From: Patescibacteria group bacterium
GTDB lineage: Bacteria > Patescibacteriota > Minisyncoccia > Phycocordibacterales > PALSA-1337
Assembly: GCA_018971685.1 (NCBI GenBank)
Contig: JAGXAG010000006.1
Coordinates: 62 to 64,061 of the forward strand
Length of the DNA: 64,000 bases
Direction of reading: 5' to 3'
A model generated the notes under the pieces. That model was not told where the DNA came from. It was given only the letters and a program-made list of their open reading frames with translations, and searched no databases. The position numbers were made by a program, and so were the translations under genes. This document shows, piece after piece, positions 3,145 through 57,548 of this stretch (its first letter is position 1; the number at the start of each line of letters is the position of its first letter).

Positions 3145-3184
3145 GGAGATGGCCGACGATTTTCGGCATAAAATAGCCGATTAT

Positions 3185-3244
3185 CCACAAATTAGTACCC
3201 AATTTGTGGACTTTACTCCACAAATTTGGTAGTATTTGGGTACT
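3185..3244. promoter_or_regulatory. Operator-like nested palindromes directly upstream of the AAA+ ATPase gene
   Basis: TCCACAAATT-AGTACCC-AATTTGTGGA, then TTGTGGAc-ttta-cTCCACAA, then TCCACAAATT...GGGTACT. Half-site TCCACAAATT recurs 33 bp apart. AGTACCC/GGGTACT are inverted. Confidence 0.4.
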
Positions 3245-6641: not shown

Positions 6642-6664
6642 AGTGTGATTTAATTATAACACTT

Positions 6665-7789
6665 ATGAGAACTTATATTCTTACCGGAGGAACTGGATTT
6701 TTGGGTTTATATCTATCACGAGAAATTCTCAATCATGGAGACCGTATCATATTCATAGGAAGAGCCAGAAATGGTTTGTCTTTCAGGGAAAGAATGTCCA
6801 ATGCGTTAGGGAGCTATGAAGCCAGATCTGCGGAATTCGTCGAAGCTGACATAGTCGACGGTGAAGTAAAATCAATGATTGAATCTGTATCCCGAATACC
6901 TTGGCCCGTAGATGGAGTATGGCACCTTGCAGCTGATCTGAGCTTTAATCCAAAAAACAGAGAGCGGGTCTTTAGTGTAAATATCGGCGGCACAAGGAAT
7001 GCCATAAAGCTGTCAGAAAATTTGAAATGCCCGTTGTATTACATTAGCACCGCTTATGTACATGGACGAAGATCTGGCGTTGCCTTTGAGAGATATGAGG
7101 CACGGCCAAAAAAATTCAATAATGCTTATGAAGAGAGCAAGTTTGAAACGGAGCAACTGATAAAAAATGCCTCCAATCTGAAGACGGTTATATTCAGGCC
7201 GAGCATTCTGATAGATCATGATACCAAGCGTACAAGCAATTTCGGATATTATTCGTTTATCGTGAGCATGTTGCAGTTCCGCGACGCGTTGAAACTAAAC
7301 GATTATCAGATTGCTTACATACCATTTCCATTTTTTTATTACAGTAAATCACTTCTAAATCTGATGCCGGTTACTACAGCTGTCACTATGATGTATCGCA
7401 TATCTCAAGATGCGAGGTCTCAAGGAAAAATATTCCACATTTGTAATCCAAACCCTTTTCCTGTGGGTGATATATTTAAGCAGACTCTGGACGCTCTCTG
7501 CGTCAGAATACCCCTATTCGGAGTACCTAAAGCAATCGCACTGGTCTACTTTGTCATGTTTAGCTTTTTCGGATCATTTATGAAATCTTTCCGGTCGATC
7601 GCAAAGAGGATTAAATATTTCAAATGGTATATTATTGAACGCATATCGTATGATATGACCAACACTAAAGAGTTGTCTGGAGATAATTTTGGCGATTCTT
7701 TTAAATTTCCATCAGATTACATATATATCACAGCATCGTCTTTTTGTAGTAGAATAAGGTCACAATCACATGAAAACATTAAATATTGA
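6665..7789 (+). CDS. SDR-family NAD(P)-dependent reductase, thioester-reductase/NAD_binding_4-like
   Basis: Rossmann motif TGGTGFLG, YISTAYVHG, catalytic YEESK (YxxxK). AT-rich relative to its neighbours. Confidence 0.65.
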   Translation: MRTYILTGGTGFLGLYLSREILNHGDRIIFIGRARNGLSFRERMSNALGSYEARSAEFVEADIVDGEVKSMIESVSRIPWPVDGVWHLAADLSFNPKNRERVFSVNIGGTRNAIKLSENLKCPLYYISTAYVHGRRSGVAFERYEARPKKFNNAYEESKFETEQLIKNASNLKTVIFRPSILIDHDTKRTSNFGYYSFIVSMLQFRDALKLNDYQIAYIPFPFFYYSKSLLNLMPVTTAVTMMYRISQDARSQGKIFHICNPNPFPVGDIFKQTLDALCVRIPLFGVPKAIALVYFVMFSFFGSFMKSFRSIAKRIKYFKWYIIERISYDMTNTKELSGDNFGDSFKFPSDYIYITASSFCSRIRSQSHENIKY

Positions 7790-8903
7790 TTCTATAATAC
7801 CGTCTTTCGGTATTGAAACAGTTACGGAAAGCAATTTTCCAGCGTATGTAACATTTAAAAAACAAGTAGAAATCCCCTCGCCTACTTATTGGTACTATCG
7901 CTTTCTATTATTCCTAATAAAAGTAATCGTCAAAATACGGTTGGGTATAATAGGCCAGTCGTATAAGAAATATAGAAGCCCAAAACATCTTAACAATGAT
8001 GAGGTTGAGAAAGTGTACAATAGAGAAGCGGACAGCTACGAACGCAAACACCATTTGACGACAAATTTTCGTGATACTTGGTGGAGGAGACAGAGCGGTC
8101 TGGATGTGATTTCTTTTGTTCAGGAAAAAAGCAGGATGGGAGAAGAAGTAAATTTGTTAGATATTGCCACAGGAGTCGGGCTTTCAATTGAAGAGATGTT
8201 AAGAGTCTTTAGGCAATATTCCGTAAGACTTAATATAACCGCAATCGATTACAACAAAGAAATGCTTCGCGTGGCCAACGACATAGTCTTGGCTAGAATA
8301 CGAAAATCCGGCACGCTTGATGGCGGGAACCGGCTGAGATTCGTCCGCGGTGATGCTCGCTCATTATCTCGTGCTTCAGATGGAGACGGCAATACTTCGG
8401 AGGAATTCGTCAAATTCAAAGAAGGATCCGTAGACTGTATAACTATTATGTTCGGTATCGGCGGCATACATGATTTTATCGATTCTTACAGAGAACAGTT
8501 GAAAATTCTGAAGTGCGGCGGTATAGCTTCAATCAATGATATGCATAAACCCGTCTTTGATTTTTCCGAAAAATGGCCTTTTTACATAGGCCGAAAGACT
8601 CGCGACATATTCAGCATGATGGCATGGGAAATAGCGGCCAAACCCTTGGCGTTGGGAACACTATGGGGTTGGCGAGATCCAAGCATTGATTTCCATATTC
8701 TCCCTTACATTTGCATCAGTGATCAAAAAAATAATAAATACTACGGCTTTAAGCAAAAATATTTTTCGTTGAACAATGAATTTTGGTGGTTCAAATTACC
8801 TGTCGTCTCGACTGCGCGTATAATTCTTGAAAAGGTCGAAATTGATAGGCCGGAGTTCGAACGGAGAAATGCCATAGTTGAAAGTATATTTGCCAGTAAT
8901 TAG
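7770..8903 (+). CDS. Class I SAM-dependent methyltransferase
   Basis: Motif I LLDIATGVG and a downstream acidic motif. Its start overlaps the end of the SDR gene. Confidence 0.6.
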   Translation: MKTLNIDSIIPSFGIETVTESNFPAYVTFKKQVEIPSPTYWYYRFLLFLIKVIVKIRLGIIGQSYKKYRSPKHLNNDEVEKVYNREADSYERKHHLTTNFRDTWWRRQSGLDVISFVQEKSRMGEEVNLLDIATGVGLSIEEMLRVFRQYSVRLNITAIDYNKEMLRVANDIVLARIRKSGTLDGGNRLRFVRGDARSLSRASDGDGNTSEEFVKFKEGSVDCITIMFGIGGIHDFIDSYREQLKILKCGGIASINDMHKPVFDFSEKWPFYIGRKTRDIFSMMAWEIAAKPLALGTLWGWRDPSIDFHILPYICISDQKNNKYYGFKQKYFSLNNEFWWFKLPVVSTARIILEKVEIDRPEFERRNAIVESIFASN

Positions 8904-8921
8904 TAAATCCTCGACAAATAA

Positions 8922-10532
8922 ATGGATTTAGTAAACCTATCGCTTCTTATAGTTTTTGCTATCATATTTGCTTTGGCGTGCTTCCTAGTCGCGAACAGAA
9001 AAATCTCTTCGGCGATATCATATTTCTCGCTCGTTTCATACAGCGCCAGTGTATGGGTGTTGTCAATGTATCTGTTCAGGAACGGCGAGTTTGTTCCGCT
9101 TATAGTCTCCACCAAAGCTTTGTATGTAGCGGGCATACTCATCACGCATTATTTCCTGTATTTTACGGATTGTTTTTTGGTGAATAAGAAAATAAACCGA
9201 ATATGGCCCCAATTGAGAAATGTGGTGACGGCAATTATCGTCGTCCTGGTTATATTTACGAATCTGATTATTAATGGCGTTTCTACTTTTCCGGCTAACT
9301 CGGTGTCTTTCGGCTATCTCTATCCTGTATATGCTTTCTTTGTATCATTTTATTTCTTTCTGAGTTTCGTGAATCTGTTCCACAATCACGCTTTCTTCTC
9401 CAGGAACAAAGGGGCTGATAATTCCATAAAGGTCAGACAACTTGAATACATAATCATAGCGACAATAATACCGTCATCCATAGGAGTGCTCTTTGATATA
9501 TTCTTGCCATACTACGGCTTCTTCGAACTTTATTGGTTCGGGCCGGCGGTGGTTATAATCTTCGTCGTCTTTAATGTGTATGCGATATTCAAACACAAAC
9601 TTCTTGACATAAAGTTGATTACCGCCGAGCTTTTTACAATATTGATATGGATAACAACACTTGTACACACAATGCTGTCAGAGAATACGCAAGATCAATT
9701 AATAAACGGTTTTGTATTTATCCTCGTGACGATTTTCGGAATCTTACTATTAAGGGGAATGTTCAAAGAGATTGCCCAGCGCGAGCGCATCGAGAAACTG
9801 GCGGGGGAGTTGGAGGTGGCGAATATGGGGCAGCAGGAGTTTCTGCATTTCTTATCGCACGAGGTCAAGGGATACTTCACGGTTGTCTCCGCGCTCTACG
9901 ATGCCATCCTTACGGACCCGGATTACGGGCCGGTGTCGGAAGAATTGCGAAAACTGGTATCGACCGGATTGGCCAGGAATAAGAAAGCCGTCGGCGACAT
10001 CGAGGACATACTCGTTTCCGCGGATCTGCAGAATGGCAAGGTGTCATACGAATTGAAGCCGACAGACGCCAAAGCCGCCCTGCTCGAATTGGTAAAGGAG
10101 ATGAAGCCCGAAGCCGATGAAAAAGAATTGGTCCTGCAAGTCGCCGCCGACGATGGCCCGGATTATTCCGTCATGGCCGACAAGAAGTACCTGTTCGGCC
10201 ACGCCGTCAGGAACCTGATAGAGAATGCCATCATATACACCGAAAAAGGCGAAATCATGATCACGCTTTCGCGCCACGGCGGCAATGTCACTTTGGCGGT
10301 GGCCGACAGCGGCGTTGGGCTTTCCGACGACGACAAGACCAAACTGTTCACCCGCGGCGGCCGAGGCGCCGAGTCCGGCAAGATAAACGCTCACTCGACC
10401 GGCCACGGCTTGTACATCACGAAAATGATCATCGTCGCGCACCAAGGCAGAGTCTGGGCCGAATCCGCCGGCCGCGGCAAGGGCTCGATCTTCTTCGTCG
10501 AGTTGCCGGCCGTGAATAAGGGCGCGGCGTGA
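8922..10532 (+). CDS. Membrane sensor histidine kinase
   Basis: 6-7 TM N-terminal region, H-box HFLSHEVKGYF, HATPase boxes NLIENAIIYT, DSGVGLSDD, GHGLYI. Confidence 0.8.
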   Translation: MDLVNLSLLIVFAIIFALACFLVANRKISSAISYFSLVSYSASVWVLSMYLFRNGEFVPLIVSTKALYVAGILITHYFLYFTDCFLVNKKINRIWPQLRNVVTAIIVVLVIFTNLIINGVSTFPANSVSFGYLYPVYAFFVSFYFFLSFVNLFHNHAFFSRNKGADNSIKVRQLEYIIIATIIPSSIGVLFDIFLPYYGFFELYWFGPAVVIIFVVFNVYAIFKHKLLDIKLITAELFTILIWITTLVHTMLSENTQDQLINGFVFILVTIFGILLLRGMFKEIAQRERIEKLAGELEVANMGQQEFLHFLSHEVKGYFTVVSALYDAILTDPDYGPVSEELRKLVSTGLARNKKAVGDIEDILVSADLQNGKVSYELKPTDAKAALLELVKEMKPEADEKELVLQVAADDGPDYSVMADKKYLFGHAVRNLIENAIIYTEKGEIMITLSRHGGNVTLAVADSGVGLSDDDKTKLFTRGGRGAESGKINAHSTGHGLYITKMIIVAHQGRVWAESAGRGKGSIFFVELPAVNKGAA

Positions 10533-12922: not shown

Positions 12923-14134
12923 ATGTTATTCGATTATTCAGCCGTAGACCAATCAGGAGCCAAGAAGTATGGCTCGATCGACGCCGTCAATGTCGACATA
13001 GCCATCTCGTCGTTGCAGAGAAGAGGCATGGTTGTGACAGAAATAAAAGAAGCCGGGGCGTCATCGTCGTTTTTGTCAAAAAATGTCGCCATTTTCGACC
13101 GTGTTTCGACCAAGGATATTGTCATATTGTCGCGCCAACTCTCGACTCTATTCGAAGCGCAAGTGTCGGCTCTGCGCATATTCCGCCTGCTGGCGGCCGA
13201 AACGGAAAACGCCGTTCTGGCGCGCAAACTGACGGAAGTTGCCGACGATATCCAAAGCGGCAGTCCTATTTCGGGCGCGCTCGCCAAGCACAAGAAGATC
13301 TTTTCCGACTTTTATGTGAGCATGGTAAAGGCCGGCGAAGAATCGGGCAAACTGAATGAAACCTTCTTATATCTGGCTGATTACCTGGACCGCAGTTACG
13401 ACCTGTCTTCCAGGGTAAAAGGCGCGCTTATATATCCGGCTTTCGTGATCGTCACTTTCGTTACGGTCATGATCCTCATGTTTACCATGGTTATACCGAA
13501 GATCAGCTCGATCCTGACGGATTCCGGCGCGGACATACCGATATACACCAAGGTGATCATGGGTATCAGCAACTTTCTGGTCAGTTACGGTTTTGTCCTG
13601 CTGGCCTTGCTCGTAGTCGGCGGTTTCTTCCTGGTGAGATTTATCCGCACGCCGGCCGGCCGTTTTGCCTATGACCGCTTCAAACTGAGCGTGCCTTATG
13701 TGAGCGGCTTGTTCCGCAAGCTGTACTTGGCGCGTATGGCGGATAATATGGCGACGATGCTTGCTTCCGGCATTACGATGGTCCGGGCTCTGGAATTGAC
13801 CTCGAATGTTATCAGCAACAGCGTCTATAAAACCATTCTCTCCGACGCTGTGGAATCGGTCAAAGGCGGCAAGACGCTCTCCGACTCTCTGTCCGTCGAT
13901 CCGCAAGCCATTCCGGGCATCATGACGCAGATGATGAAAGTGGGCGAAGAGTCCGGCGAATTGGGCAATATCTTGAAGACGGTGGCGAAGTTTTATAGCA
14001 GGGAAGTGACGACGGCGGTTGACTCGCTGGTTTCGCTCATCGAACCGGCGCTTATTGTATTTTTGGGCGGCGGCGTGGCGATCTTGCTGGCTTCCGTGCT
14101 GATCCCGATATATAACATCGCGAGCGCGCAGTAG
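12923..14134 (+). CDS. pilC: Type IV pilus inner-membrane platform protein PilC (GspF family)
   Basis: Two T2SSF repeats, three TM segments, about 400 aa. Confidence 0.8.
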   Translation: MLFDYSAVDQSGAKKYGSIDAVNVDIAISSLQRRGMVVTEIKEAGASSSFLSKNVAIFDRVSTKDIVILSRQLSTLFEAQVSALRIFRLLAAETENAVLARKLTEVADDIQSGSPISGALAKHKKIFSDFYVSMVKAGEESGKLNETFLYLADYLDRSYDLSSRVKGALIYPAFVIVTFVTVMILMFTMVIPKISSILTDSGADIPIYTKVIMGISNFLVSYGFVLLALLVVGGFFLVRFIRTPAGRFAYDRFKLSVPYVSGLFRKLYLARMADNMATMLASGITMVRALELTSNVISNSVYKTILSDAVESVKGGKTLSDSLSVDPQAIPGIMTQMMKVGEESGELGNILKTVAKFYSREVTTAVDSLVSLIEPALIVFLGGGVAILLASVLIPIYNIASAQ

Positions 14135-14149
14135 TGCAAGTTTTGCCGG

Positions 14150-14182
14150 ATCCGCATACAAAAACCGTCTCCAGGCGGTTTT
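14150..14182 (+). terminator. Rho-independent terminator after pilC
   Basis: AAAAACCG-tctccagg-CGGTTTTTTG. Confidence 0.5.
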
Positions 14183-14232
14183 TTGTGTGCTTCCAGTTAT
14201 CCCCATAGTTATTTGCGCCACTTTTCGCCGTT

Positions 14233-14241
14233 TTTGCTATA
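14233..14241 (+). promoter_or_regulatory. Extended -10 promoter TGCTATAAT upstream of the pilin gene
   Basis: TTTTTGCTATAAT, 76 nt upstream of ATG 14317. Confidence 0.45.
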
Positions 14242-14316
14242 ATTAAGCACGAACAACCTTGGTTAAAGGTCTGTATCAATTATTAGCAAGTTTATTAATA
14301 ACATCATATTTACAAT

Positions 14317-14799
14317 ATGAAAAAACTACAAAGTTACGCGCGCGGCTTCACCTTGATCGAATTGCTCGTCGTCATCGCCATCATTGGTATCTTGGCGTCC
14401 GTCGTGTTGGTGAGCTTGGGGAGTGCGAGACAGAAGGGTGCGGATGCTAAAATTCAGGAAGAATTGGGTCAAGCTAGATCGGCTGCAGAGATATTTAGTT
14501 CAAATAACGGTAATTCTTATGGTACCGCGCCTACATCCGGAATCTGTACTACTGGAAGTATGTTTACGGATGGTGTTTCAGGTATGCGCCAAGCGTTGTC
14601 TGCTATATCTACAGCTACAGACTGTGGTTCAAACGGTACAGCCTATTCGATAGCTGCTGCCTTAAATACGAGCGGTCAATATTGGTGTATAGACTCAACG
14701 GGTGTATCTAGAAATACCACTGCAGCTGGTTCGTTATATGCAGGCTTAACAGGGGCTTCTGGCGCTCATGCTGCAGCAGGTGCGACAGTATGCAATTAG
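14317..14799 (+). CDS. pilA: Type IV pilin (major pilin candidate) with a prepilin class III signal
   Basis: N-terminus ...ARGFTLIELLVVIAIIGILASVV (G|FTLIE cleavage/methylation motif). Has its own promoter and terminator. Confidence 0.8.
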   Translation: MKKLQSYARGFTLIELLVVIAIIGILASVVLVSLGSARQKGADAKIQEELGQARSAAEIFSSNNGNSYGTAPTSGICTTGSMFTDGVSGMRQALSAISTATDCGSNGTAYSIAAALNTSGQYWCIDSTGVSRNTTAAGSLYAGLTGASGAHAAAGATVCN

Positions 14800-14824
14800 T
14801 TTGATTTAGTCTGGTTTTACTTTA

Positions 14825-14855
14825 GCCACCCGCTTGAAGCGGGTGGTTTTTATTC
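14825..14855 (+). terminator. Rho-independent terminator after the pilin gene
   Basis: GCCACCCGC-ttgaa-GCGGGTGGT followed by TTTTTATT. Confidence 0.6.
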
Positions 14856-16088
14856 TTGCGTCAAGAAGCCGTAATTGATAATATTATACAAATGAAATTA
14901 AGAAAGATTTCCACGGCTAGATATTTACCTATTGAATTCTATGTTTTATTGTTGCCTTCAATTGTTATATTTATAACACTCCTCATCATCAATGCTCCAT
15001 TTGTATCTATAATAGAACATTTTTTCATGGCGCAATCGATTAACGCCATAATATACGGTGATAAGATTCTCTTATCTGTTTTTTTTGTCATGGCGGTGTA
15101 TATTACCATGAAGGTCGTGGTGAGTGCATGGCGAGCTATGTATATATTGGCAAAAAATGGTAGCAGGAGTTGGGCTAAAGAAAGCGTGATAAAAGGTACA
15201 ATATCTGTAAGCAGAAGCGCAGTTTTTGTTTTTCTTACATACAGTCTGACCAGTGTTGTTTTAGTAGCTTTACTACTTCAAATTTTTGGTGCAGTAAGTT
15301 TTGTCAATGTCGTCAAATCAACTATTACTCTAACTAATATCGATAGTTTAATATTTGGTGGTTATTTACCGTCCGTTATACACTCTCTAAGCCGTATACC
15401 ATATCTCGAACAAGCAATAGTTCGATCATATTTGTCTTTAGTTATAATAACGCCGGTAATTTTGGCGTTATTATTCTTGTTCAACAGAAGACTGTTCCGT
15501 AAATTTACGATTAGTTTTTTTTTGGTCTTCTTGATAGCTTTGCCGTTTTGGCAGCTAATTCCGGCTGTGTCCCCCAGCGCCATGTATAGATTCAATCTTT
15601 TCCAGGTACCTATACCCCCGAACATTGAGTCGAGCATGGTCAAATATCCTATAAGTCCGTATTTGAAAAATAATATAATCTCCATTGAGGATGACTTCAT
15701 AAATCCGTCTTATAGATCTATCGCCGTAAGCACTTTTCCTAGTATGCATGCTGCTTGGGCTATGATTGTTGCATATTATGGTACGATTTTGTTCTGGCCT
15801 TTGGGTGTATTGTTAGTGCCATGGGCGATTTTCAATTCATTTGGGGCAATATATGTGGAGCAGCATTACGGTGTTGATGTGATATTTGGCGTACTTGTAG
15901 CAGTAACCGCTATAATTTCTGTCAGTTATTTATTAAAAGTAGAAGAAAAATACTTCAATGATAAGTATAATTTATTTGCCGTTATAGATATGGCAAATAC
16001 TGATATGCGGAACTTGTTGAGAAAAGCAAACAATTTACATGCAAGATTGCATATGTGGATAAGGCAATCTGTAAATAATTCCAAATAA
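14856..16088 (+). CDS. Polytopic membrane protein with a C-terminal PAP2-like phosphatase motif set
   Basis: About ten TM helices, PSMH (PSGH-like) and EQHYGVDV (SRx5Hx3D-like). Embedded in the pilus locus. Confidence 0.55.
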   Translation: MRQEAVIDNIIQMKLRKISTARYLPIEFYVLLLPSIVIFITLLIINAPFVSIIEHFFMAQSINAIIYGDKILLSVFFVMAVYITMKVVVSAWRAMYILAKNGSRSWAKESVIKGTISVSRSAVFVFLTYSLTSVVLVALLLQIFGAVSFVNVVKSTITLTNIDSLIFGGYLPSVIHSLSRIPYLEQAIVRSYLSLVIITPVILALLFLFNRRLFRKFTISFFLVFLIALPFWQLIPAVSPSAMYRFNLFQVPIPPNIESSMVKYPISPYLKNNIISIEDDFINPSYRSIAVSTFPSMHAAWAMIVAYYGTILFWPLGVLLVPWAIFNSFGAIYVEQHYGVDVIFGVLVAVTAIISVSYLLKVEEKYFNDKYNLFAVIDMANTDMRNLLRKANNLHARLHMWIRQSVNNSK

Positions 16089-20570: not shown

Positions 20571-22838
20571 ATGAATGCCATGCCCAAAAAAGCCCCGAAA
20601 GAGGCGGTAGAACGCCTAAATAAGCTCAAAGAGGCGATAGAGAAGCATCGCTACAACTATTATGTGCTAGACCAAACCGAGGTCTCCGACGCGGCATATG
20701 ATTCGCTGGTACATGAATTGGCGGAAATAGAAGCGGAATATCCGGAATTATTCACGCCTGATTCGCCGTCGCAGAGAGTCGGCGGCGAGCCGTTGCCGGG
20801 ATTCAAGAAGGTCAGGCACGAAGTGCCGCAATGGTCTTTCAACGACGCTTTCACGCCCGAGGAGATGCGCGATTTCGACGCGCGCGTCAAGCGATTCTTG
20901 GCGCAGGCGGGCGCCAAGGGAAGCGGCGAAGACGCGGGCGCGCCAAGGCCTTCGTACACCTGCGAGCACAAGATCGACGGGCTAAAGATCGTGCTTACTT
21001 ACGAAAACGGAATTTTGAAACAAGCGGCGACCCGGGGCGACGGCACCGTCGGCGAAGATGTGACGGAAAATGTTAAGACGATCAGGTCGGTGCCGTTGCG
21101 GCTCCGTGAACCGATTTCGATGATCGTCGAGGGCGAAGCCTGGATAGCGAAGAGCACGCTCGAATCCTTAAATAAAACGCGGATTGAAAACAGCTTGGAG
21201 CCGTTCGCGAACCCGCGGAATCTGGCGGCGGGATCGATCCGGCAGTTGGATCCGAAGGTGGCGGCTGAGCGTAGACTGGACTCCTTTATTTACGAGATGG
21301 CGACGCCGGCCTCTCCCTCCTCGCCGCGACGAAGTGTCTCACATCCGGCTTCGTCTCGTTCGACACTTGCCGCCGGCTCGACGGTCGAGGCCGGCTTCCC
21401 GCGGACGCAATGTGAAGAATTGGAATTTTTGCGCCGCATGGGATTCAAGGTCAATAAAAACTTCGAGCATTGCAAAGACATCGATGAAGTAATCGCGTAC
21501 TGGGAAAAATGGCGCGGCAAAATGAAAGATCAGGACTACTGGGCGGACGGGATCGTGGTGAAAGTGGATGAACGGAAATATCAAGAGGCGCTGGGCTATA
21601 CCGGCAAGGCGCCGCGATGGGGCATAGCGTTCAAATATCCCGGCGAAGAAGTCACGACCGTCTTGGAAGACATCGTCTTCCAAGTCGGCCGGATGGGCAC
21701 GATCACGCCGGTGGCGGTATTGAAGCCGGTTTCAGTCGGCGGTTCGACGGTTTCAAGGGCGACTCTGCACAATGAAGATGAAATCAAGCGACTGGATGTG
21801 CGTATCGGCGACACGGTCGTATTGCGCAAAGCCGGCGATGTTATCCCGGACATCGTGTCGGTGGTGAAAGAGCTCCGGGTGGCGTCGAGCAAACCGTTCG
21901 TCTGGCCTTCGCGGGTGGCGGCTTGCGGCGGCGACGGCAAGATCGAGCGCGTGCCGGGCGAAGCGGCTTGGCGGTGCGCCGACCGCAATTCATTCGAGCA
22001 ACAAAAAAGAAAACTTTATTATTTCACTTCGAAACACTGCTTCGACATCGACGGCATGGGGCCGAAGGTGATCGATTTGCTCTTGGAGCACGGCCTTATC
22101 TCTTCGCCGGCGGACATTTTCACCTTGAAGAAAGGCGATTTGGAGAATTTGCCGCGCATGGGAACAAAGTCGGCCGATAATTTGATGCGGGCTATCGAGA
22201 AAGCGCGCACGGTTACTTTGCCGCGATTCATCGCTTCGCTCTCTATTCCGCAAGTCGGCGAAGAGACGGCGTATGATCTTGCGCGACATTTCAGTGCCAC
22301 TACATCCCCGTCCGTTGTGGAGGACCTTCGGGACACGCCGTCGGCGCCTGCTGGCGCCGCGGCTGGCTCTCGGCCGCCTTCGCGACCTCCGAGGCGTCCC
22401 TCAGGTCTCTCCACGACGGACAGGGCGACTATCCTGTTGCGTGAAATGTTTGCAGCAGGTGTCGATGATTTTGAGAAAATCAATGGAGTCGGGCCGAAAG
22501 TTGCGCAGTCAATAGTCAGTTGGTTTGGAAATCAGGACAATCGCCGATTGGTCCACAGATTATTGAAGCTTGTGACGATCGAAATCGAGAAAGAAATAAC
22601 AGGATCGGCAAACTCACTCGCCGGCAAATCGTTCGTCTTTACCGGCACATTGCCGACTCTGCAAAGGGAAGAGGCGCAAAACATGGTGCGCCGAAACGGC
22701 GGCAGTGTTTCGAACTCGGTTTCCAAGAAAACTTCGTTTCTGGTCGCCGGCGCCGACGCCGGTTCGAAATTGGACAAAGCGCGCGAATCGGGCGTCAAGG
22801 TTATTTCCGAAGATGAATTCTTGAAAATGATAGGATAA
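20571..22838 (+). CDS. ligA: NAD-dependent DNA ligase LigA, carrying two in-frame repeat-element insertions
   Basis: Adenylation motif KIDGLKIV, OB/Zn/HhH domains, C-terminal BRCT. At 755 aa it is about 80 aa longer than typical LigA. Confidence 0.9.
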   Translation: MNAMPKKAPKEAVERLNKLKEAIEKHRYNYYVLDQTEVSDAAYDSLVHELAEIEAEYPELFTPDSPSQRVGGEPLPGFKKVRHEVPQWSFNDAFTPEEMRDFDARVKRFLAQAGAKGSGEDAGAPRPSYTCEHKIDGLKIVLTYENGILKQAATRGDGTVGEDVTENVKTIRSVPLRLREPISMIVEGEAWIAKSTLESLNKTRIENSLEPFANPRNLAAGSIRQLDPKVAAERRLDSFIYEMATPASPSSPRRSVSHPASSRSTLAAGSTVEAGFPRTQCEELEFLRRMGFKVNKNFEHCKDIDEVIAYWEKWRGKMKDQDYWADGIVVKVDERKYQEALGYTGKAPRWGIAFKYPGEEVTTVLEDIVFQVGRMGTITPVAVLKPVSVGGSTVSRATLHNEDEIKRLDVRIGDTVVLRKAGDVIPDIVSVVKELRVASSKPFVWPSRVAACGGDGKIERVPGEAAWRCADRNSFEQQKRKLYYFTSKHCFDIDGMGPKVIDLLLEHGLISSPADIFTLKKGDLENLPRMGTKSADNLMRAIEKARTVTLPRFIASLSIPQVGEETAYDLARHFSATTSPSVVEDLRDTPSAPAGAAAGSRPPSRPPRRPSGLSTTDRATILLREMFAAGVDDFEKINGVGPKVAQSIVSWFGNQDNRRLVHRLLKLVTIEIEKEITGSANSLAGKSFVFTGTLPTLQREEAQNMVRRNGGSVSNSVSKKTSFLVAGADAGSKLDKARESGVKVISEDEFLKMIG
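21306..21394 (+). repeat. Palindromic repeat element family 1, copy A, inserted in frame in ligA
   Basis: CCTCTCCCTCCTCGCCGCGACGAAGTGTCTCACATCCGGCTTCGTCTCGTTCGACACTTGCCGCCGGCTCGACGGTCGAGG. About 90% identical to the reverse complement of 23150-23250. Encodes the low-complexity peptide TPASPSSPRRSVSHPASSRSTLAAGSTVEAGFP. Confidence 0.7.
22307..22425 (+). repeat. Palindromic repeat element, a different family, also inserted in frame in ligA
   Basis: Imperfect terminal inverted repeats CCCGTCCGTTGTGGAGGA ... TCTCCACGACGGACAGGG. Encodes a roughly 40 aa Pro/Ser/Arg-rich insert between the HhH region and FAAGVDDFEKINGVG. Confidence 0.55.
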
Positions 22839-35112: not shown

Positions 35113-35706
35113 ATGAATTCGAATCAAGTTCTGATCTGGCTGAGCAGCCTCATTGCGCTGCTCCTGTACTATCCACTGATCTCCGGAATCCTCAAGGGCG
35201 AAATTAAGCAAAGTGTCGCCACATGGATCCTCTGGGTTTCTCTGGATACGATTGCCCTCGTCAGCATCATCATGCAAAAAGGCAACTATCTGCTTCTGGT
35301 GTTCTACTGCACCTGCGGCACTATAGTCACCTTATCCCTCGTTTACAAGCGACTGTTCAGTTGGACAAGATTCGAGAGCTTTGTTCTCGGACTTGTTGTC
35401 ATCTGTCTTGTTGTTTGGGGCTTGAGTGGATCGAGGTGGGCTACAATCGCAAGCACTATCGCCGTGTGCATTTCCGGTGCTCCGCAGATCCGTGATTCAT
35501 GGCGGACACCTGATCGGACTACCGGATTGATCTACATGGGATACGTTCTCGCGAATAGCCTCTCCTTTTTCGGAGGCAAGACGTGGACGATCGAAGAGAG
35601 ATTCTATCCGGGAATGATGGCGCTTCTTTGTCTGACGATTGCTACGGCGTCGTTCAGGAAGAAAGACCAGAAGTCTCCGGTGATCTCCGTAACCGCGCCG
35701 CTTTGA
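35113..35706 (+). CDS. Hypothetical polytopic membrane protein (island cargo 2)
   Basis: Five or six TM helices, no motifs. Confidence 0.5.
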   Translation: MNSNQVLIWLSSLIALLLYYPLISGILKGEIKQSVATWILWVSLDTIALVSIIMQKGNYLLLVFYCTCGTIVTLSLVYKRLFSWTRFESFVLGLVVICLVVWGLSGSRWATIASTIAVCISGAPQIRDSWRTPDRTTGLIYMGYVLANSLSFFGGKTWTIEERFYPGMMALLCLTIATASFRKKDQKSPVISVTAPL

Positions 35707-47639: not shown

Positions 47640-49319
47640 ATGGTCAGGCGATGGTTTTCATTCATAGGCAAGGAAATACGCGGACTCCATGAGGCCGCGT
47701 ATCTTCTGGCCTTTTTCGCGCTATCGTCGCAACTCTTGGCATTGGTCCGCGATAAACTTCTCGCCTATTCGTTTGGCGCCAGCCATCAGCTTGACATATA
47801 TTATGCGGCGTTCAGGATACCAGATGTCATATTCGCGTCCGTAGGCTCGCTGGTGTCCGCATCGATACTCTTACCTTATTTCATCGAGCGGTTCGAAAAA
47901 GGGCACAAAGAAGGCAAATCGTTTTCAGATGCCATATTCACCGTCTTTTTTGCGACTATTGTCGTGGCGAGCGCCATTATATACATATCTGCACCATGGC
48001 TTGTGCCGAAAATAATTCCGGGATTTGCCAATGATCCGTATCTGCCGCAGCTCATAATGTCTGTAAGAATAATGCTTTTGTCTCCTTTATTTTTGGGCCT
48101 CTCCAACCTGTTTTCGTGTTTGACTCAGATGAGGCACAGATTTTTGGTATATGGCGCCAGCCCGGTGGTTTATAATATGGGCATTATATTCGGAGTGTTA
48201 TTCATATATCCGTTGTTCGGAATTTCCGGACTGGCGATCGGCGTGGCGTTCGGGGCGTTTTTGCATATGGCCATACAAGTGCCGTTCATGGCGCATGAAG
48301 GATTGGTACCAAAATTTTCAAAAGCGATCGAATGGGTGAAAATAAAGAGCATTATTTTCAATTCTTTGCCGCGCACCATAACCCTATCCGCCAATCAGCT
48401 GGCATCGTTCGTGCTTGTCGCCATGGCTTCTCTCATGGCGCCGGGCTCGATATCCGTCTTTACCTTTGCTTTCAATCTGCAAGGCGTGCCATTGACTATT
48501 ATCGGAGCCAGCTACTCTTCGGCGGTTTTTCCCACGCTGTCAAAATTGTATTTCCAAAAGAATTCAAAAGAATTTTTGGATAAAATGATTGTCTCCGCCC
48601 AACACATCATATTCTGGTCTATGCCGTTAATGGTGCTTTTTATCGTTTTGCGCGCGCAAATCGTGCGTACCGTTCTTGGCGCCGGCAAATTTGATTGGGC
48701 AGATACCAGACTGACCGCCGCCATGCTTGCCCTGTTCGTTGTTTCGACGATTGCGCAGAGCCTGATCGTCCTGTTTGTGCGCGCCTTTTACGCCGAAGGC
48801 AAGACGGCCAGGCCGCTCCTCATAAATGCCATATCGGCGTCGACGATTGTCGTATCTGGATACTTGCTACTCAAAGTTTTTTACGCATGGCCGGTTTTCC
48901 GATTTTTCGTCGAAGATTTGTTGAAGGTGAGCGGCCAATCCGGCACGAGCGTACTCATGTTAGGATTGGCGTATTCGCTTGGAGCCATACTGAACTTGAT
49001 CCTGCACTGGTATGTTTTCAGCAAACATTACAAAGGCTTTACCAAGCCGGTACTCGCGACTATGTTCCATAGTTTTGCGGCGTCGGTCATCATGGGCTAC
49101 GCGGCTTTCCTGAGTCTGCGCGTTTTCGACGGCATATTTCCGCTTACAAAAATATGGGGCGTCTTCATGCAAGGCTTCTCGGCCGGCATATTCGGCCTTG
49201 CCGTCGGCGTCGTCATCTTGATCTTGCTCAAGAATAAGGAGCTGGCGGCGGTCTGGGCGACCATCCACCACAAGATTTGGAAGACGCAAATTCCACCGGC
49301 GGAAGTGGAGAGGATGTGA
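47640..49319 (+). CDS. murJ: Lipid II flippase MurJ (MviN)
   Basis: 14-TM MOP-superfamily profile, N-terminal LALVRDKLLAYSFGAS...DIYYAAFRIP, typical of MurJ. Confidence 0.8.
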   Translation: MVRRWFSFIGKEIRGLHEAAYLLAFFALSSQLLALVRDKLLAYSFGASHQLDIYYAAFRIPDVIFASVGSLVSASILLPYFIERFEKGHKEGKSFSDAIFTVFFATIVVASAIIYISAPWLVPKIIPGFANDPYLPQLIMSVRIMLLSPLFLGLSNLFSCLTQMRHRFLVYGASPVVYNMGIIFGVLFIYPLFGISGLAIGVAFGAFLHMAIQVPFMAHEGLVPKFSKAIEWVKIKSIIFNSLPRTITLSANQLASFVLVAMASLMAPGSISVFTFAFNLQGVPLTIIGASYSSAVFPTLSKLYFQKNSKEFLDKMIVSAQHIIFWSMPLMVLFIVLRAQIVRTVLGAGKFDWADTRLTAAMLALFVVSTIAQSLIVLFVRAFYAEGKTARPLLINAISASTIVVSGYLLLKVFYAWPVFRFFVEDLLKVSGQSGTSVLMLGLAYSLGAILNLILHWYVFSKHYKGFTKPVLATMFHSFAASVIMGYAAFLSLRVFDGIFPLTKIWGVFMQGFSAGIFGLAVGVVILILLKNKELAAVWATIHHKIWKTQIPPAEVERM

Positions 49320-49343
49320 TATTTCTGCTATATTCAATGGACG

Positions 49344-51365
49344 ATGAACCCCGCCCAAATACGCAATTTCTCTATTATCGCGCACATAGACCACGGCAAG
49401 TCCACCTTGGCCGACCGGATGTTGGAGTTGACCGGCACCATAGAGAAGCGCAAAATGCAGGCGCAGGTGTTGGATTCCATGGAATTGGAGCGTGAGCGCG
49501 GCATAACCATCAAACTCCAGCCGGTCAGGATGAAATGGTCATTGAAAGAGACCATCGCCGGCGCGCCCGCGGGCGAGTATGTGTTGAATCTAATAGACAC
49601 GCCCGGACACATCGATTTTTCCTATGAAGTATCCAGGTCGCTCAAAGCCGTCGAAGGATCCATCTTGCTCGTCGACGCCACCCAAGGCGTCCAGGCTCAG
49701 ACCCTAACCACCCTCAATATGGCGCGCGAGGCCGGCCTGGTCATCATTCCCGTCGTTTCCAAGATCGATTCGCCGCTGGCGCAGATCGAAGAGACCGTCA
49801 AAGAGATCAGTCAGCTTTTGGGTTGCCATGAATCCGAAGTCATCAAAGTTTCCGGCAAAACCGGCGAGGGCGTCGAACATTTACTCGACAAAATTATTAG
49901 TAAAATCCCGCCGCCATCCTGTGCCAGCCCCGCCCGAAACAAAGGAAGTTTCGCGAGCTCCGCGACTCTGCCGCGAAGCAATCCGTCGTTGCGTTTCCCG
50001 GACGGCAAGGGCGTGCATGTCCGAGAGCCATTGCCGGCCGCGGAAACGCCGACGGTTGCGAGCGGCATTCGCGGAGCTCGCGAAACTTCCTTTGTTTCGG
50101 GCGGGGCGACTGAATCTTTTTCGGCCGCCGAATCATTCAAGGAACCATTCCGGTCCCTCGTTTTTGACTTCCAATACTCCAACCACACCGGCATGATCGT
50201 CTATGTCCGCGTGTTCGACGGACAAGTCCGCAAACATGACAAATTGCAGTTCAAAATAGCCGGCAAAACATTCGAGGCCATCGAAGCAGGAATATTCGCT
50301 CCCCAGGAAACCCCCGTCGAATACATTGGCGCCGGCGAGATCGGCTATATCGTGACCGGCATCAAGGAGCCTGGCATTGCTTCCGTCGGCGATACCGTAG
50401 CCTCGATCAGAGACAATCAGCCGCCGCTATCCGGTTACCAAAGTCCAAAACCCGTTGTCTGGGCGTCGATCTATCCCGAAAGCCAAGACAATTTGCCCCT
50501 TTTGCGCCAAGCCCTCGCGCGCTTGCGCCTGTCCGATGCCGCTTTTACTTATGAAGAGGAGGCGTCCGGCACGCTCGGCAAAGGGTACCGATCAGGGTTC
50601 CTCGGCATGTTGCACCTGGAAATAGTCACCGAGCGCTTACGCCGCGAATACAACCTTGAACTGGTCGTTACCATGCCAACCATCATTTATTCCGTCAGAT
50701 TGAAAAACGACAAAGAGACCAAAATTTATTCGCCGGCGCTGTTCCCCGACGATCACGATATCATGTCTGTGAGCGAACCGGTCGTAACCATGAAGATAAT
50801 CACTCCACCGCCATATATCGGCGGATTGATGAAGTCAATTTATGACCACGAGGGCGAGATCGTCTCTACCGATAACTTCGGCGATAGCCGTACGATATTG
50901 GCCTTGAATATGCCGCTACGCGAGCTGATGCGCAACTTCTTCGACGAAGTCAAGAGCGTTTCTTCCGGTTACGCGTCGATTTCTTACGACATAACCGGCG
51001 CGAGGCAAGCCGATGTCACCAGGCTGGATATTTTGGTTGCCGACGAACCCGTGCCGGCTTTTGCCAGGGTTGTATCCAGGAGAAGAGTGCAAGAAGAGGC
51101 GGAATCTGCCGTCGAAAGGTTGCACAAACTGCTGCCACGCGAATTGTTCACTTTCAAAATCCAAGCCAAGGCCCACGGTCGTATCCTGGCTTCGCGCACC
51201 CTTTCCGGCATGAAAAAGGACGCCGCCGGTACGCTCTCCGGCGGCGATATCACCCGCAAGATGAAATTGCGCGAAAAACAAAAAGAAGGCCGCAAACGGC
51301 TGAAGGCGCGCGGCAAAGTGGCGATAGCGCAGGATGTTTTCGTGAAGATGATGCGCGCCGATTAG
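49344..51365 (+). CDS. lepA: Elongation factor 4 (LepA), with an approximately 70-aa in-frame palindromic insertion
   Basis: G1-G5 GTPase motifs (AHIDHGKST, DTPGH, SKID), and the LepA C-terminal domain. 673 aa against about 600 expected. Confidence 0.9.
   Translation: MNPAQIRNFSIIAHIDHGKSTLADRMLELTGTIEKRKMQAQVLDSMELERERGITIKLQPVRMKWSLKETIAGAPAGEYVLNLIDTPGHIDFSYEVSRSLKAVEGSILLVDATQGVQAQTLTTLNMAREAGLVIIPVVSKIDSPLAQIEETVKEISQLLGCHESEVIKVSGKTGEGVEHLLDKIISKIPPPSCASPARNKGSFASSATLPRSNPSLRFPDGKGVHVREPLPAAETPTVASGIRGARETSFVSGGATESFSAAESFKEPFRSLVFDFQYSNHTGMIVYVRVFDGQVRKHDKLQFKIAGKTFEAIEAGIFAPQETPVEYIGAGEIGYIVTGIKEPGIASVGDTVASIRDNQPPLSGYQSPKPVVWASIYPESQDNLPLLRQALARLRLSDAAFTYEEEASGTLGKGYRSGFLGMLHLEIVTERLRREYNLELVVTMPTIIYSVRLKNDKETKIYSPALFPDDHDIMSVSEPVVTMKIITPPPYIGGLMKSIYDHEGEIVSTDNFGDSRTILALNMPLRELMRNFFDEVKSVSSGYASISYDITGARQADVTRLDILVADEPVPAFARVVSRRRVQEEAESAVERLHKLLPRELFTFKIQAKAHGRILASRTLSGMKKDAAGTLSGGDITRKMKLREKQKEGRKRLKARGKVAIAQDVFVKMMRAD
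49927..50107 (+). repeat. 181-bp MITE-like element with perfect 39-bp terminal inverted repeats, inserted in frame in lepA
   Basis: Left arm GCCCCGCCCGAAACAAAGGAAGTTTCGCGAGCTCCGCGA (49927-49965). It is exactly the reverse complement of 50069-50107, and the centre is itself near-palindromic. Confidence 0.8.
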
Positions 51366-51493
51366 TACCTCCACACAGGGAAGTACAAAAGGATCATGCT
51401 GATGATAACCAATATGCTCACAACGATGAATCCTATGTTTAGCTTTTTTCTGGTTTTTTCATGAAATAGCATGCTTATAGTATACTTATTTGC

Positions 51494-51877
51494 ATGAAGC
51501 ATCGCAACCGTTATTCCTGGAGCCGATTTTTGTCTTCGCCGATAGCGATTATCATCTTGGCGATATTATTGATTTTCATGCTTCGAGGCGTCTGGGGCGT
51601 TTACGGTAAATCTTCCGCCGCCGCCGACAGATTGGCGCAAGCCCAAGCGTCGCTCGATGCCTTGAAAGCTCATGAATCGGATCTGGAACGGCAGGTTTCG
51701 TATCTTTCAACCGACCAAGGCGTCGAATCAGAGATCAGGAGCAAATTTCGCGCCGCCTTGCCCGGCGAATCGGTTGCGGTTATTATTGACGGAACGCCGA
51801 CATCGACCGATAATGTGCCGGTCGTTGTTCCGGCGAAATCGTGGTGGATGAAATTATTGAGTGTGTTTGGGTTGTAG
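51494..51877 (+). CDS. Septum formation initiator-like protein (FtsB/DivIC family candidate)
   Basis: A single N-terminal TM followed by a coiled coil (AQAQASLDALKAHESDLERQVSYL). Confidence 0.45.
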   Translation: MKHRNRYSWSRFLSSPIAIIILAILLIFMLRGVWGVYGKSSAAADRLAQAQASLDALKAHESDLERQVSYLSTDQGVESEIRSKFRAALPGESVAVIIDGTPTSTDNVPVVVPAKSWWMKLLSVFGL

Positions 51878-55387: not shown

Positions 55388-56332
55388 ATGAACAAAAAAC
55401 TGCTAATTTTAGCCATTTCAGCCACAATAATCGCTTTGCCGGCACTAGCCGCGGCGCAACCGACGACTGACAACAGCCTCTCTAGCGCGGCTCCGGCCGC
55501 TAAACCGTCTGTCGGCGATTCTTCTTCCAGTGCCGCTCCGACAGCTCCGCCGGCGGGTAATTCTTCTTCCAGCGCGGCACCAGTTACGCCTCCTGCCGGA
55601 AACTCTTCTTCGAGCGCAGCGCCGTCGACTCCTCCTACGGGAGGGTCATCTTCCAGCGCCGCTCCGGCCTCAACTCCTTCACCTGTCCCTCCCACCCCTC
55701 CTTCTTCCGGCGGCGGATCGACTTCAAGCTCAGGCAGTTTTATAGGCGGTGGATTCAGCGCCGTGCCTCTGGCGATCAGAACCGCAACTTCAACCGCAAC
55801 GGCTTCGGCGGATTGTCCGCTTATAACTGCTTACATGAAGCTTGGCTGGAACAATCCGGCCGATCAGGTTGCCAAGTTACAAGCATTTCTGAAAAATTCC
55901 GAGCATCTGAATGTTTCCGTAACCGGCATATTTGACCAGCAAACCGAACAGGCTGTCGAAGCTTTCCAGAGGAAATATCTTGAGACTATCATGGGTCCGT
56001 GGAGCGCCACCAAGCCTTCCGGTACCGTCTACATTACGACCATCAAGAAAATCAACGAAATCGCCTGCAATCAGCCGCTTACGCTCGATCCGAAAGAACT
56101 GTCCACCATCGCGCAATATGTGAAAAATCTGGCTTCCGGTGCGCGAAATGAAACGGCTCAAACTATTGAAGTCGGCGCCGTCAGCAGTTCAACAACGGTT
56201 TCCGGCCCTGTCGTACCGATAGGCCCGGCTCTCATAGGCCAGAATGTAACGGCCAGCTCGTCAAACGCCGCCGCTGTTGGCAATGCCTCTGTCATCCAAA
56301 GATTTTGGAGTTTCATAAAAAGCATCTTTTAG
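55388..56332 (+). CDS. Secreted protein with Ser/Pro-rich tandem repeats and a putative peptidoglycan-binding (PG_binding_1-like) domain
   Basis: Signal peptide, four units of (SSSSAAP-x-PP-x-G), then ITAYMKLGWNNPADQVAKLQAFL...GIFDQQTEQAVEAFQRKY. Confidence 0.55.
   Translation: MNKKLLILAISATIIALPALAAAQPTTDNSLSSAAPAAKPSVGDSSSSAAPTAPPAGNSSSSAAPVTPPAGNSSSSAAPSTPPTGGSSSSAAPASTPSPVPPTPPSSGGGSTSSSGSFIGGGFSAVPLAIRTATSTATASADCPLITAYMKLGWNNPADQVAKLQAFLKNSEHLNVSVTGIFDQQTEQAVEAFQRKYLETIMGPWSATKPSGTVYITTIKKINEIACNQPLTLDPKELSTIAQYVKNLASGARNETAQTIEVGAVSSSTTVSGPVVPIGPALIGQNVTASSSNAAAVGNASVIQRFWSFIKSIF
55500..55690 (+). repeat. Roughly 45-bp tandem DNA repeat (4 units) encoding the Ser/Pro-rich linker
   Basis: Repeated ...TCTTCTTCCAGYGCSGCWCC...CCGCCGGCGGGWAA... 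units. Confidence 0.5.
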
Positions 56333-56411
56333 CGATCAGGAGGGATGTACTATAACGCGTCTGATGTGAAGCGGAGGGACGCCCTATATATAGGGCGTCC
56401 CTCTGTATTTA

Positions 56412-57548
56412 TCACGCCAATTTTTTTGTGCCGTGAGCTGTTATATCACCGCTTGATTCTTCAATGCCGCGCATTGCTCCCGCAAGTGCTATCATAAGGG
56501 CGTTGTCGCCGGATATGTGTTTTGATGGCAGGAATAAAGGAATGTCTAATGAATACGCCAGCCGAGCCAATCGTTCGCGGATCAGGCGGTTCGCGGAGAC
56601 GCCGCCGCCCAGAATGAGTGATTTGGCGGAAGTTTGGTCTATGGCCGCGCGAGTCTTCGACTCGAGGACTTCGGTAACGGCGCGTTCAAACCCGAGGGCC
56701 ATGCCTTTTTTGAAGTCGTCGTCCAGCCGGCCGTCTGCATCCGCCCGGGTTTTTTCCGCCTTTTGGATGGCGTAGAGTACGGCGGTTTTCAAGCCCGAGA
56801 ATGAAAAATCAAGCGAACCGTTTCTAATCATAGGCCTGGGCAGATCTACCGGCGGTTCGATCCCTTCTTCTTCGGCTTTTTGCGCCAGCACGGAAATATG
56901 CGGTCCGCCCGGATAGGGAAGTCCGAGTAGGCGCGCGACTTTGTCGAACGCTTCTCCCGCGGCATCGTCGCGGGTGGCGCCGAGGATTTCATATTTCCAT
57001 AGATTTTTTTTGACATATGTGCCGGCTTCTCCGCGCACGCTTTCGATTTTCACCAACTCGGTGTGTCCGCCGCTTACAAGCAGTGCCACCGACGGCAAAG
57101 GCAACGGTTTCAATTCTTGCCAAGTGCCATAAGGCGCGTCTGATCCCAAAAGTGATCCGACGATGTGGCCTTCCATGTGATTTACGGGAGTGATCGGGAC
57201 TTTCCACTTTTCGGCCAGATCTCGCGCGAACACGATGCCGGTCCACAAAGCAGGCTCCAGGCCCGGGCCTTCCGTAACAGCGATGCGGTCTATGCCCGGC
57301 CTTTTTTCCAGAAAATCATAGCCGTAAAGCGGCTCCATGAGTTTTGTCAAAAGCACCGGCAGATTCTTTTGGTGTTCCCGTTTGGCCAGGTTAGGGTATA
57401 CGCCGCCATACGCGCTGTGCAGTTCGGCTTGCGAATGAACCAGCGAATTTATCACGCGGCATTCGAATTTTCCCGCCGCTTCTCTGGTTTCGATGATGGC
57501 GAGCGCCGTCTCGTCGCAACTTGTTTCTATGCCCAAGATGGTTGTCAT
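56412..57548 (-). CDS. tsaD: tRNA N6-adenosine threonylcarbamoyltransferase TsaD
   Basis: MTTILGIETSCDETALAI N-terminus, Kae1/TsaD metal-binding His pair and GGVSANRLIRERL. Confidence 0.9.
   Translation of the reverse strand: MTTILGIETSCDETALAIIETREAAGKFECRVINSLVHSQAELHSAYGGVYPNLAKREHQKNLPVLLTKLMEPLYGYDFLEKRPGIDRIAVTEGPGLEPALWTGIVFARDLAEKWKVPITPVNHMEGHIVGSLLGSDAPYGTWQELKPLPLPSVALLVSGGHTELVKIESVRGEAGTYVKKNLWKYEILGATRDDAAGEAFDKVARLLGLPYPGGPHISVLAQKAEEEGIEPPVDLPRPMIRNGSLDFSFSGLKTAVLYAIQKAEKTRADADGRLDDDFKKGMALGFERAVTEVLESKTRAAIDQTSAKSLILGGGVSANRLIRERLARLAYSLDIPLFLPSKHISGDNALMIALAGAMRGIEESSGDITAHGTKKLA

Follow-up and report, generated by a model that had tools for sequence, protein, structure and literature searches.

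What is a 181-nucleotide (nt) palindrome with perfectly matched arms doing inside a housekeeping gene, and how would it stay perfect there? The question is raised by lepA, the gene for elongation factor 4 (EF4), in a 64,000-nt stretch of DNA from a Patescibacteria group bacterium (contig JAGXAG010000006.1, positions 62 to 64,061), which is called the window throughout. The original prediction, made from the letters alone, saw in it a miniature inverted-repeat transposable element (MITE) with perfect terminal inverted repeats, akin to the Rickettsia palindromic elements (RPEs) and tolerated as a surface loop. We report herein that the lepA palindrome is probably one of two copies of a non-autonomous palindromic repeat that is specific to its lineage, codes for protein and is of the RPE kind. 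The parts of the locus are as follows.

49344-51365, + strand: lepA (EF4), an open reading frame (ORF) of 673 amino acids with the Pfam domains GTP_EFTU, EFG_III, EFG_C and LepA_C
49920-50141, + strand: extra linker segment, residues 193-266 (74 amino acids), from the alignment to solved EF4
49927-49965, + strand: left arm of the palindrome, 39 nt, 100% complementary to 50069-50107
49966-50068, + strand: quasi-palindromic center including the apical loop, 103 nt, the imperfect upper stem of the hairpin fold
50069-50107, + strand: right arm, 39 nt, the complement of the left arm
49947-50087, + strand: core shared with a second copy in typA, 141 nt, equivalent to positions 3106-3246 of the typA locus L024
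50106-50111, + strand: GCGACT tail at the 3' junction, read as Ala-Thr

The protein encoded by the host gene matches solved EF4 structures (E = 3e-161), is 100% identical to the NCBI entry 'GTP-binding protein [Patescibacteria group bacterium]' (P0001), and has its nearest relatives among LepAs of the Paceibacteria/Parcubacteria type, at 70-83% identity. In a phmmer search against the PDB, LepA residues 3-192 correspond to residues 6-189 of T. thermophilus EF4 and residues 267-672 to residues 194-603; 74 LepA residues thus stand in for the 4-residue EF4 linker 190-193, which joins the G domain to domain II. Among 24 aligned LepA sequences, the gap between 'IPPP' and 'FRSLVFDF' holds about 76 residues in the window LepA and only 7-10 in P0002, P0007 and P0010, which are LepA homologues at 80-83% identity. 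The closest orthologue (protein P0007, DNA locus L025) has 7 residues at the site, and the empty site is visible in its DNA, while the remaining homologues in the alignment carry unrelated inserts of varied lengths. Judged by these alignments, the lepA segment is an insertion relative to orthologues and lies in the solvent-exposed linker between the EF4 G domain and domain II. The predictions that the insert is specific to the lineage, with the closest orthologues lacking it, and that it would map to a surface loop of EF4, here the short inter-domain linker, both held. The possibility that the segment is a conserved protein domain was rejected: when the insert peptide was run exhaustively with phmmer against 1.84 billion proteins, no homologue emerged, and the 3 weak multi-stretch matches returned, at 29-35% identity in long proteins, were taken as compositional.

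The anatomy at the DNA level is largely that originally described. The two arms of 39 nt are exact reverse complements and enclose a spacer of 103 nt, for a total of 181 nt, and the element begins with GCCCCGCC and ends with GGCGGGGCGACT; the opening octamer of the left arm is also the terminal octamer of a sibling family described below. The nearly palindromic nature of the center is confirmed by folding, in that region 49915-50120 forms a single long hairpin of -150.4 kcal/mol, versus -82.3 +/- 4.7 for shuffled sequences (z = -14.5). The lepA palindrome is the sole inverted repeat in the window with arms of 20 nt or more lying within 400 nt, and its arm has no other match there at up to 3 mismatches (shuffle expectation 0). 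The GC content of the element is 0.66, as opposed to 0.55 for lepA and 0.50 for the window. An Rfam scan of 49000-51500 (E <= 1) returned two chance-level matches only, both outside the element.

The claim that the element is translated without breaking the frame stands as far as lepA is concerned, where the frame continues unbroken in the ORF; it does not extend to the 181-nt unit, which is not itself a multiple of 3. The first base of the palindrome is the second of a Ser codon, and its last base is the second of an Ala codon. Because 181 is not divisible by 3, exact excision of 181 nt would break the lepA frame; excision of 183 nt would not. The mirror ORFs 49811-50194 (- strand) and 49828-50196 (+ strand) are both present, as claimed, and all six reading frames over the 181 nt are in fact free of stop codons. 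Such openness has a probability of about 0.003 under a palindromic shuffle null and of 1e-4 under a plain shuffle, and it was seen in 0 of 389 natural windows with a GC content of at least 0.60.

A second copy of the element was found through its translation. When the concatenated six-frame peptides were searched against 5.8 billion proteins, only LepA itself and a partial TypA/BipA were recovered. The LepA accessions (MBU6427223.1, MDE1946723.1, MDE2010974.1 and MDE2232817.1) and the TypA accessions (MBU6427275.1 with its N-terminal fragment MBU6427345.1, MDE1946922.1, MDE2011123.1 and MDE2233186.1) co-occur in the same four assemblies, according to a cluster look-up. The typA contigs of the MBU assembly end within the palindrome; at the typA locus L024 (GCA_028865255.1), a 655-amino acid ORF is intact through it. 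The typA palindrome is 175 nt long, with perfect arms of 36 nt and a spacer of 103 nt, and it occupies the linker that joins the G domain to domain II, structurally equivalent to the site in LepA. Both copies are in frame and in the same orientation. They align without gaps over 141 nt with 11 mismatches, a core made up of the center and the inner 19 nt of each arm, and they have in common an in-frame peptide of 38 amino acids, ATLPRSNPSLRFPDGKGVHVREPLPAAET[P/S]TVASGIR. Beyond the core, the outer arms are unrelated (lepA GCCCCGCCCGAAACAAAGGA..., typA GCGTTCTCGACGGAGTG...) yet perfectly self-paired in each copy.

These results divide two earlier claims. Further copies had been predicted, and the core, including the inner 19 nt of the arms, does recur in typA; the 39-nt arm itself has no other match, either in the window or, as an exact 22-mer, in the species-representative genomes searched. 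The perfect-terminal-repeat anatomy of a MITE, on the other hand, is not sustained, as the outer ~20 nt of the arms, the would-be termini, are unrelated between copies and no target-site duplication is evident.

Eight of the 11 mismatches between the two copies form 4 mirrored arm pairs (T-A to C-G, G-C to C-G, and C-G to T-A twice), so that every arm difference is compensated (4/4, with 0 uncompensated) and both copies keep perfect arms. Since all four arm differences are compensated, youth alone does not explain the perfection of the arms, which points to their concerted evolution. The two palindrome lengths, 181 and 175 nt, both leave a remainder of 1 on division by 3, and GACT then follows both; the bases next to the element are CA on the left and GACT on the right in lepA, and AA and GACT in typA. 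Separately, L024 contains a palindrome at 2386-2435 with 25-nt arms, no spacer and 92% complementarity, which may be a terminator or an operator; the start of typA (2506) lies some 70 nt downstream of it.

The junction motif recurs at a third palindrome, the second in the window, which lies in the DNA ligase gene ligA.

22305-22428, + strand: in-frame hairpin insert in the 755-amino acid LigA ORF (20571-22838), of a family other than that of lepA

Region 22260-22460 folds at -106 kcal/mol (z = -6.3), and the hairpin lies between the HhH and BRCT domains and encodes the peptide TTSPSVVEDLRDTPSAPAGAAAGSRPPSRPPRRPSGLSTTDRA. Its termini, CCCCGTCCG...CGGACAGGGCGACT (also given as CCCCGTCCG...CGGACAGGG), resemble those of the lepA element; its interior differs. 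GCGACT follows 3 of 3 palindromes in the same frame, at 50106-50111 in lepA, L024 3262-3267 in typA and 22425-22430 in ligA, and in lepA and typA this hexamer consists of the last two arm bases plus GACT. As GCGACT is not over-represented in the window (34 occurrences versus 31 expected), its presence at all three junctions is unlikely by chance. A second GCGACT marks the junction between left arm and center within the shared core (lepA 49962-49967, typA L024 3121-3126); the paired hexamers are spaced 144 nt apart in lepA and 141 nt in typA, both multiples of three. Not every lineage-specific insert here is palindromic, because a Ser/Pro/Ala-rich insert that splits the LigA adenylation domain (21300-21410, residues ~244-280) forms no hairpin (z = 0.16).

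Hairpin inserts are also found in related Patescibacteria, whose genomes hold dozens of such elements, in lepA and typA among other genes. All the inserts tested in other lepA genes fold as hairpins, with z scores from -3.2 to -8.1.

L002, lepA insert: z -6.3
L003, lepA insert, site 1: z -4.9
L003, lepA insert, site 2: z -8.1
L004, lepA insert: z -3.2
L005, lepA insert, site 1: z -6.6
L005, lepA insert, site 2: z -7.3

A second insertion hot spot of LepA lies within the G domain, after 'QPVRMKW', where several Paceibacteria LepAs have 30-70 extra residues (alignment columns 66-135; L005 1734-1872 and L003 1703-1785), and these inserts fold as hairpins too. One module, with the peptide 'GGALPRSSLRSSSRDSSHPSGG', is present at both LepA sites (1 and 2) and in TypA.

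The sibling family of this module, a 'GGALPRS' palindrome of ~95 nt, is represented by 27 distinct copies (L006-L023, L027-L044). A 22-mer from it has 19 exact matches in the genome collection, all in two metagenome-assembled genomes (MAGs) of project ERP119705, with copies reaching 11 or more per MAG, and it occurs in 18 stretches of Hainich groundwater metagenomes (wells H41/H43); no match was found in viral contigs. The family is confined to one groundwater site. All 20 of its 20 interior copies lie within ORFs of at least 150 amino acids. The host genes, whose identities were checked by Pfam, encode LepA (2 sites), TypA, HisRS, a UvrD-type helicase-nuclease, a beta-CASP RNase, a DHH/DHHA1 (RecJ-like) protein, CTP synthase, DnaE, a class-V aminotransferase, GatB, tRNA-guanine transglycosylase (TGT), a PIF1-like helicase, an ATPase resembling the coupling protein of type IV secretion systems, and an aminoacyl-tRNA synthetase. 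The consensus, AC-CGCCCCGCC...GGCGGGGCG-AATAAC, shares its terminal octamer with the lepA element, and its tail, GCGAAT in place of GCGACT, is nearly identical and read in the same frame. The families are linked by their common ends, GCCCCGCC/GGCGGGGC, and by the GCGA(C/A)T tail; 14 of 14 sibling copies carry this tail on the sense strand (p = 1.2e-4). The sibling stem also covaries well beyond its controls: 9 pairs are changed on both sides, compared with 2.6 +/- 1.2 in shuffles (0 of 500 reaching it) and 1-4 with slid partners.

One sibling copy has its interior turned over within its ends. In two orthologous beta-CASP RNase genes from the two MAGs, L011 4574-4681 and L013 3639-3746 hold the palindrome at the same site as flip/flop isomers: the palindromic body is inverted, and the head (ACC) and the tail (GAATAAC) remain in place, L013 being the standard form. 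The L011 copy was considered as an insertion in the opposite orientation, and this was rejected, as the interior alone is flipped.

Yet another dispersed in-frame hairpin family, with the peptide 'REQSRDEADTFPRDLA...' (also given as 'REQSRDEADTFPRDLAARGD.SRGKVVGEV.ETV'), is common to LepA site 2 (P0021, P0004), a PIF1-like helicase (L022) and a TypA (P0247). In the DNA it is found at L022 ~1360-1600 and L003 2164-2269, and it stands in tandem with the GGALPRS element in L022 and P0247. Contigs often end within these palindromes (P0121/P0245, the typA of the MBU MAG; P0125, L008, L017, L019, L021, L030, L040, L041), which leads to 'partial' gene calls; typA of L024 was miscalled with a late start, as 490 instead of 655 amino acids.

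Might the lepA and typA palindromes nonetheless have arisen in place? A non-mobile palindrome could form in lepA by template switching or inverted duplication of the linker, and in typA either on its own or through ectopic conversion. Perfect palindromes are known to originate from template switching, according to the work cited in PMC6649704, and a local origin would suit outer arms that are locus-specific and perfectly paired, the restriction of the two known copies to structurally equivalent sites, and the lack of any target duplication found. It does not readily explain a 141-nt core with as few as 11 mismatches in lepA and typA, for the two genes cannot be aligned in the flanks and encode proteins that are ~28% identical, a divergence that renders homology-driven conversion between them implausible. 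Moreover, siblings that share the termini and the tail occupy at least 20 sites in unrelated genes, so sequences of such kind do move. A local origin is unlikely on this evidence.

An element selected for its structure is decidedly unlikely. Such an element would work as RNA or DNA, for instance by pausing translation at the boundary between G domain and domain II so as to help the protein fold co-translationally, or by serving regulation or processing. In its favor are the compensated changes in the arms and the covariation of the sibling stem. The orientation is fixed relative to the gene, the positions in LepA, TypA and LigA are at domain boundaries, and one inner sibling stem pair alternates between U-G and U-A, a toggle that suits the sense strand only. 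However, the closest orthologues do without the hairpin and others carry unrelated hairpins or none, some sibling copies sit inside domains and not at boundaries alone, and no Rfam family is matched. The families are also limited to single populations, which fits the fast turnover of selfish DNA rather than function.

An intervening sequence that is kept out of the protein, be it an intein, an intron-like RNA or a translational bypass element, seems very improbable. Neither 181 nor 175 nt is divisible by 3, and very stable hairpins are typical of bypass and of some excision signals. Nevertheless, the frame is open through the insert in lepA, typA, ligA and all 20 of 20 interior siblings, and all six frames are open across the lepA element, which would be needless in a sequence that is removed, and all three candidates were rejected on account of this open frame in every copy. 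An insert of 61-74 residues is in addition far too short for an intein, at ~60 residues, the Cys/Ser...His-Asn junctions are absent, and no Rfam intron family was matched. Least credible is a chimeric fold-back from amplification or assembly: palindromes are a classic product of both, and contigs do break inside the elements, but the identical LepA is found on three contigs and in four NCBI assemblies, which stem from two or more submissions, L001 (GCA_028870795.1) equals the window at 100% identity over 22 kb, the insert is in frame and not derived from adjoining lepA sequence, the typA copy is diverged, and independent metagenomes hold the same kind of element, so that an artefact can be excluded.

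What remains, and what we consider probable, is a coding palindromic repeat of the RPE kind. The corresponding part of the original prediction, a palindromic repeat tolerated in a coding gene as a surface loop, agrees with the lineage-specific insertion, its position in the EF4 linker, the copy in typA and the in-frame sibling palindromes in housekeeping genes. On this basis the following course of events may be proposed. The ribosome would read through the lepA element and produce an unstructured loop of ~60-70 residues, rich in Ser, Ala, Arg, Pro and Gly, that the cell would tolerate without having a use for it. Where a genome is small and gene-dense, selection would retain copies only if they are in frame, free of stops and in permissive loops; if only such copies survive, repeated hits on the linkers of paralogous GTPases are to be expected. 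The arms would be kept complementary by concerted evolution, most likely through intramolecular template switching at the hairpin (quasi-palindrome correction) or arm-to-arm gene conversion. This process would copy a change from one arm onto the other, could flip the interior, and may lengthen the stem into the local flank, thereby placing unrelated outer arms on a shared core. Copies might move by a single-strand-DNA route, either of the HUH/Y1 type or free of a transposase. The fixed orientation, the asymmetric tail and the hairpin fit, and so suggest, spread through a single-strand hairpin; this is the weakest step of the proposal.

Several observations weigh against this reading. The family amounts to two known copies, both at equivalent linkers of paralogous GTPases, which is thin for a dispersed repeat, the DNA examined of this genome being the window plus 7.5 kb. 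No convincing direct duplication was detected in the lepA or typA flanks, and no conserved terminal repeat was identified between the two copies; nor was a transposase identified, although no search aimed at one was made. An exact 22-mer of the arm gave 0 matches in 185,579 species-representative genomes, a collection that evidently lacks this genome, and an exact 22-mer of the center gave 0 matches in JGI metagenomes and IMG/VR. We infer translation through a hairpin of -150 kcal/mol from the open frame, and the upkeep of the arms is probably due to template switching, as judged from the pattern of changes. An AlphaFold2 model based on the 24-sequence alignment is poor overall (mean predicted local distance difference test score, pLDDT, of 47) and renders the insert as coil (pLDDT 25-29); because of this, structural tolerance rests on the sequence mapping to solved EF4. 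Finally, the peptide 'SPARNKG' of the left outer arm resembles the 'SGARNDE' of P0013/P0015, a hint that this arm may be native linker; the hint was not confirmed in the DNA, which is ~52% identical to L026.

RPEs are described as palindromic repeats located in frame within unrelated genes (PMC10969869, PMC1166351; Ogata et al. 2000, 2002, as cited by these two papers). Like them, the elements described here are short palindromic repeats that form hairpins and lack a transposase of their own, and they sit in frame within housekeeping genes that are unrelated to one another, in a bacterium with a small genome; each family specifies its own peptide at fold-compatible positions, and several families occur per lineage. 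The hairpin of 181 nt is somewhat above the size of a typical RPE (~100-150 bp). The differences are nonetheless considerable. The host belongs to another phylum, Patescibacteria (the candidate phyla radiation, CPR), and the peptide has no homologue among the 1.84 billion proteins; the RPE DNA profiles were not compared directly. Only 2 copies of the lepA-type element are known, in lepA and typA, and the shared unit is a core with locus-specific outer stems, followed by an asymmetric GCGACT/GCGAAT tail in a strictly fixed orientation. RPEs reportedly lose their repeat identity over time (PMC6649704), whereas the CPR arms are perfect and co-evolve. Only 85 of the 728 RPEs of R. felis lie within ORFs (PMC1166351), in contrast to the wholly intragenic interior copies (20/20) of the CPR sibling.

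Other known systems match in part. In the mitochondria of hairworms (Nematomorpha), long perfect inverted repeats likewise occur in translated genes, their arms evolve in concert by paired substitutions, and template switching has been proposed to keep the coding palindromes perfect (PMC6649704). Both arms there encode conserved parts of the protein and no dispersed families exist, whereas the CPR palindrome is absent from orthologues and present in different genes. MITEs such as ERIC, Correia/NEMIS, RUP and Nezha (PMC10969869) are small as well, have inverted repeats and no capacity to code for a transposase, and occasionally supply in-frame intragenic copies. Their terminal repeats, however, find no counterpart conserved between the lepA and typA copies, and no target-site duplication is evident. 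The lepA element is in addition one hairpin and not a pair of terminal repeats around unrelated DNA, and no parent insertion sequence is known. With a shared core and unrelated outer arms, the two copies reverse the usual MITE pattern of conserved ends and variable middle. A hairpin adjoining a short conserved motif, with a strong orientation bias, recalls the repetitive extragenic palindromic (REP) sequences and REPINs, with their REP-associated tyrosine transposases (RAYTs), and the IS200/IS605 insertion sequences, a likeness to be taken as a lead only. REPs are extragenic by definition and much shorter than the CPR elements, and all the CPR copies seen are intragenic. No prior description of palindromic, MITE-type or RPE-type elements in CPR bacteria was found in the open-access corpus.

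Protein-coding palindromic repeats have so far been treated as essentially a Rickettsia trait, apart from the non-mobile case in hairworm mitochondria. The same strategy in unrelated small-genome CPR bacteria suggests that it is a general outcome of selfish hairpin DNA in a gene-dense genome. The CPR genes affected include essential ones (lepA, typA, ligA, dnaE, pyrG and gatB). Beyond what is seen in Rickettsia, the CPR elements add arms kept perfect via compensated changes, locus-specific stem extensions and flip isomers, which makes them a natural system for the study of template switching and palindrome maintenance in bacteria. For annotators and phylogenomic pipelines there is a practical side as well, in that palindromes break MAG contigs, give truncated or odd-length gene calls and inflate the number of apparent 'lineage-specific insertions'. 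A wider proposal, which we put forward tentatively and regard as possible rather than probable, is that Paceibacteria-type CPR bacteria harbor a new class of self-perfecting, coding palindromic mobile elements. Each would consist of a conserved hairpin core with an asymmetric tail, spread through single-stranded hairpin intermediates, always enter genes in one orientation, extend and correct its stem by template switching into local sequence and be able to flip its interior. Such elements would be a main source of lineage-specific insertions in CPR housekeeping proteins and a cause of contig breaks in CPR MAGs.

Elsewhere in the window, other fold outliers (3121-3280, 35321-35440, 40561-40700, 56301-56480 and others) are not in-frame inserts of long ORFs. 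A perfect palindrome of 30 nt without a spacer (GAGGGACGCCCTATA/TATAGGGCGTCCCTC) is located at 56374-56403, in a region without a spanning open frame. Two islands of low GC content (6001-10000 and 14001-16000), at 0.40-0.42 compared with ~0.50 elsewhere, could be acquired DNA. The cumulative GC skew climbs to a peak at ~44-46 kb and falls thereafter, which may mark a replication landmark.

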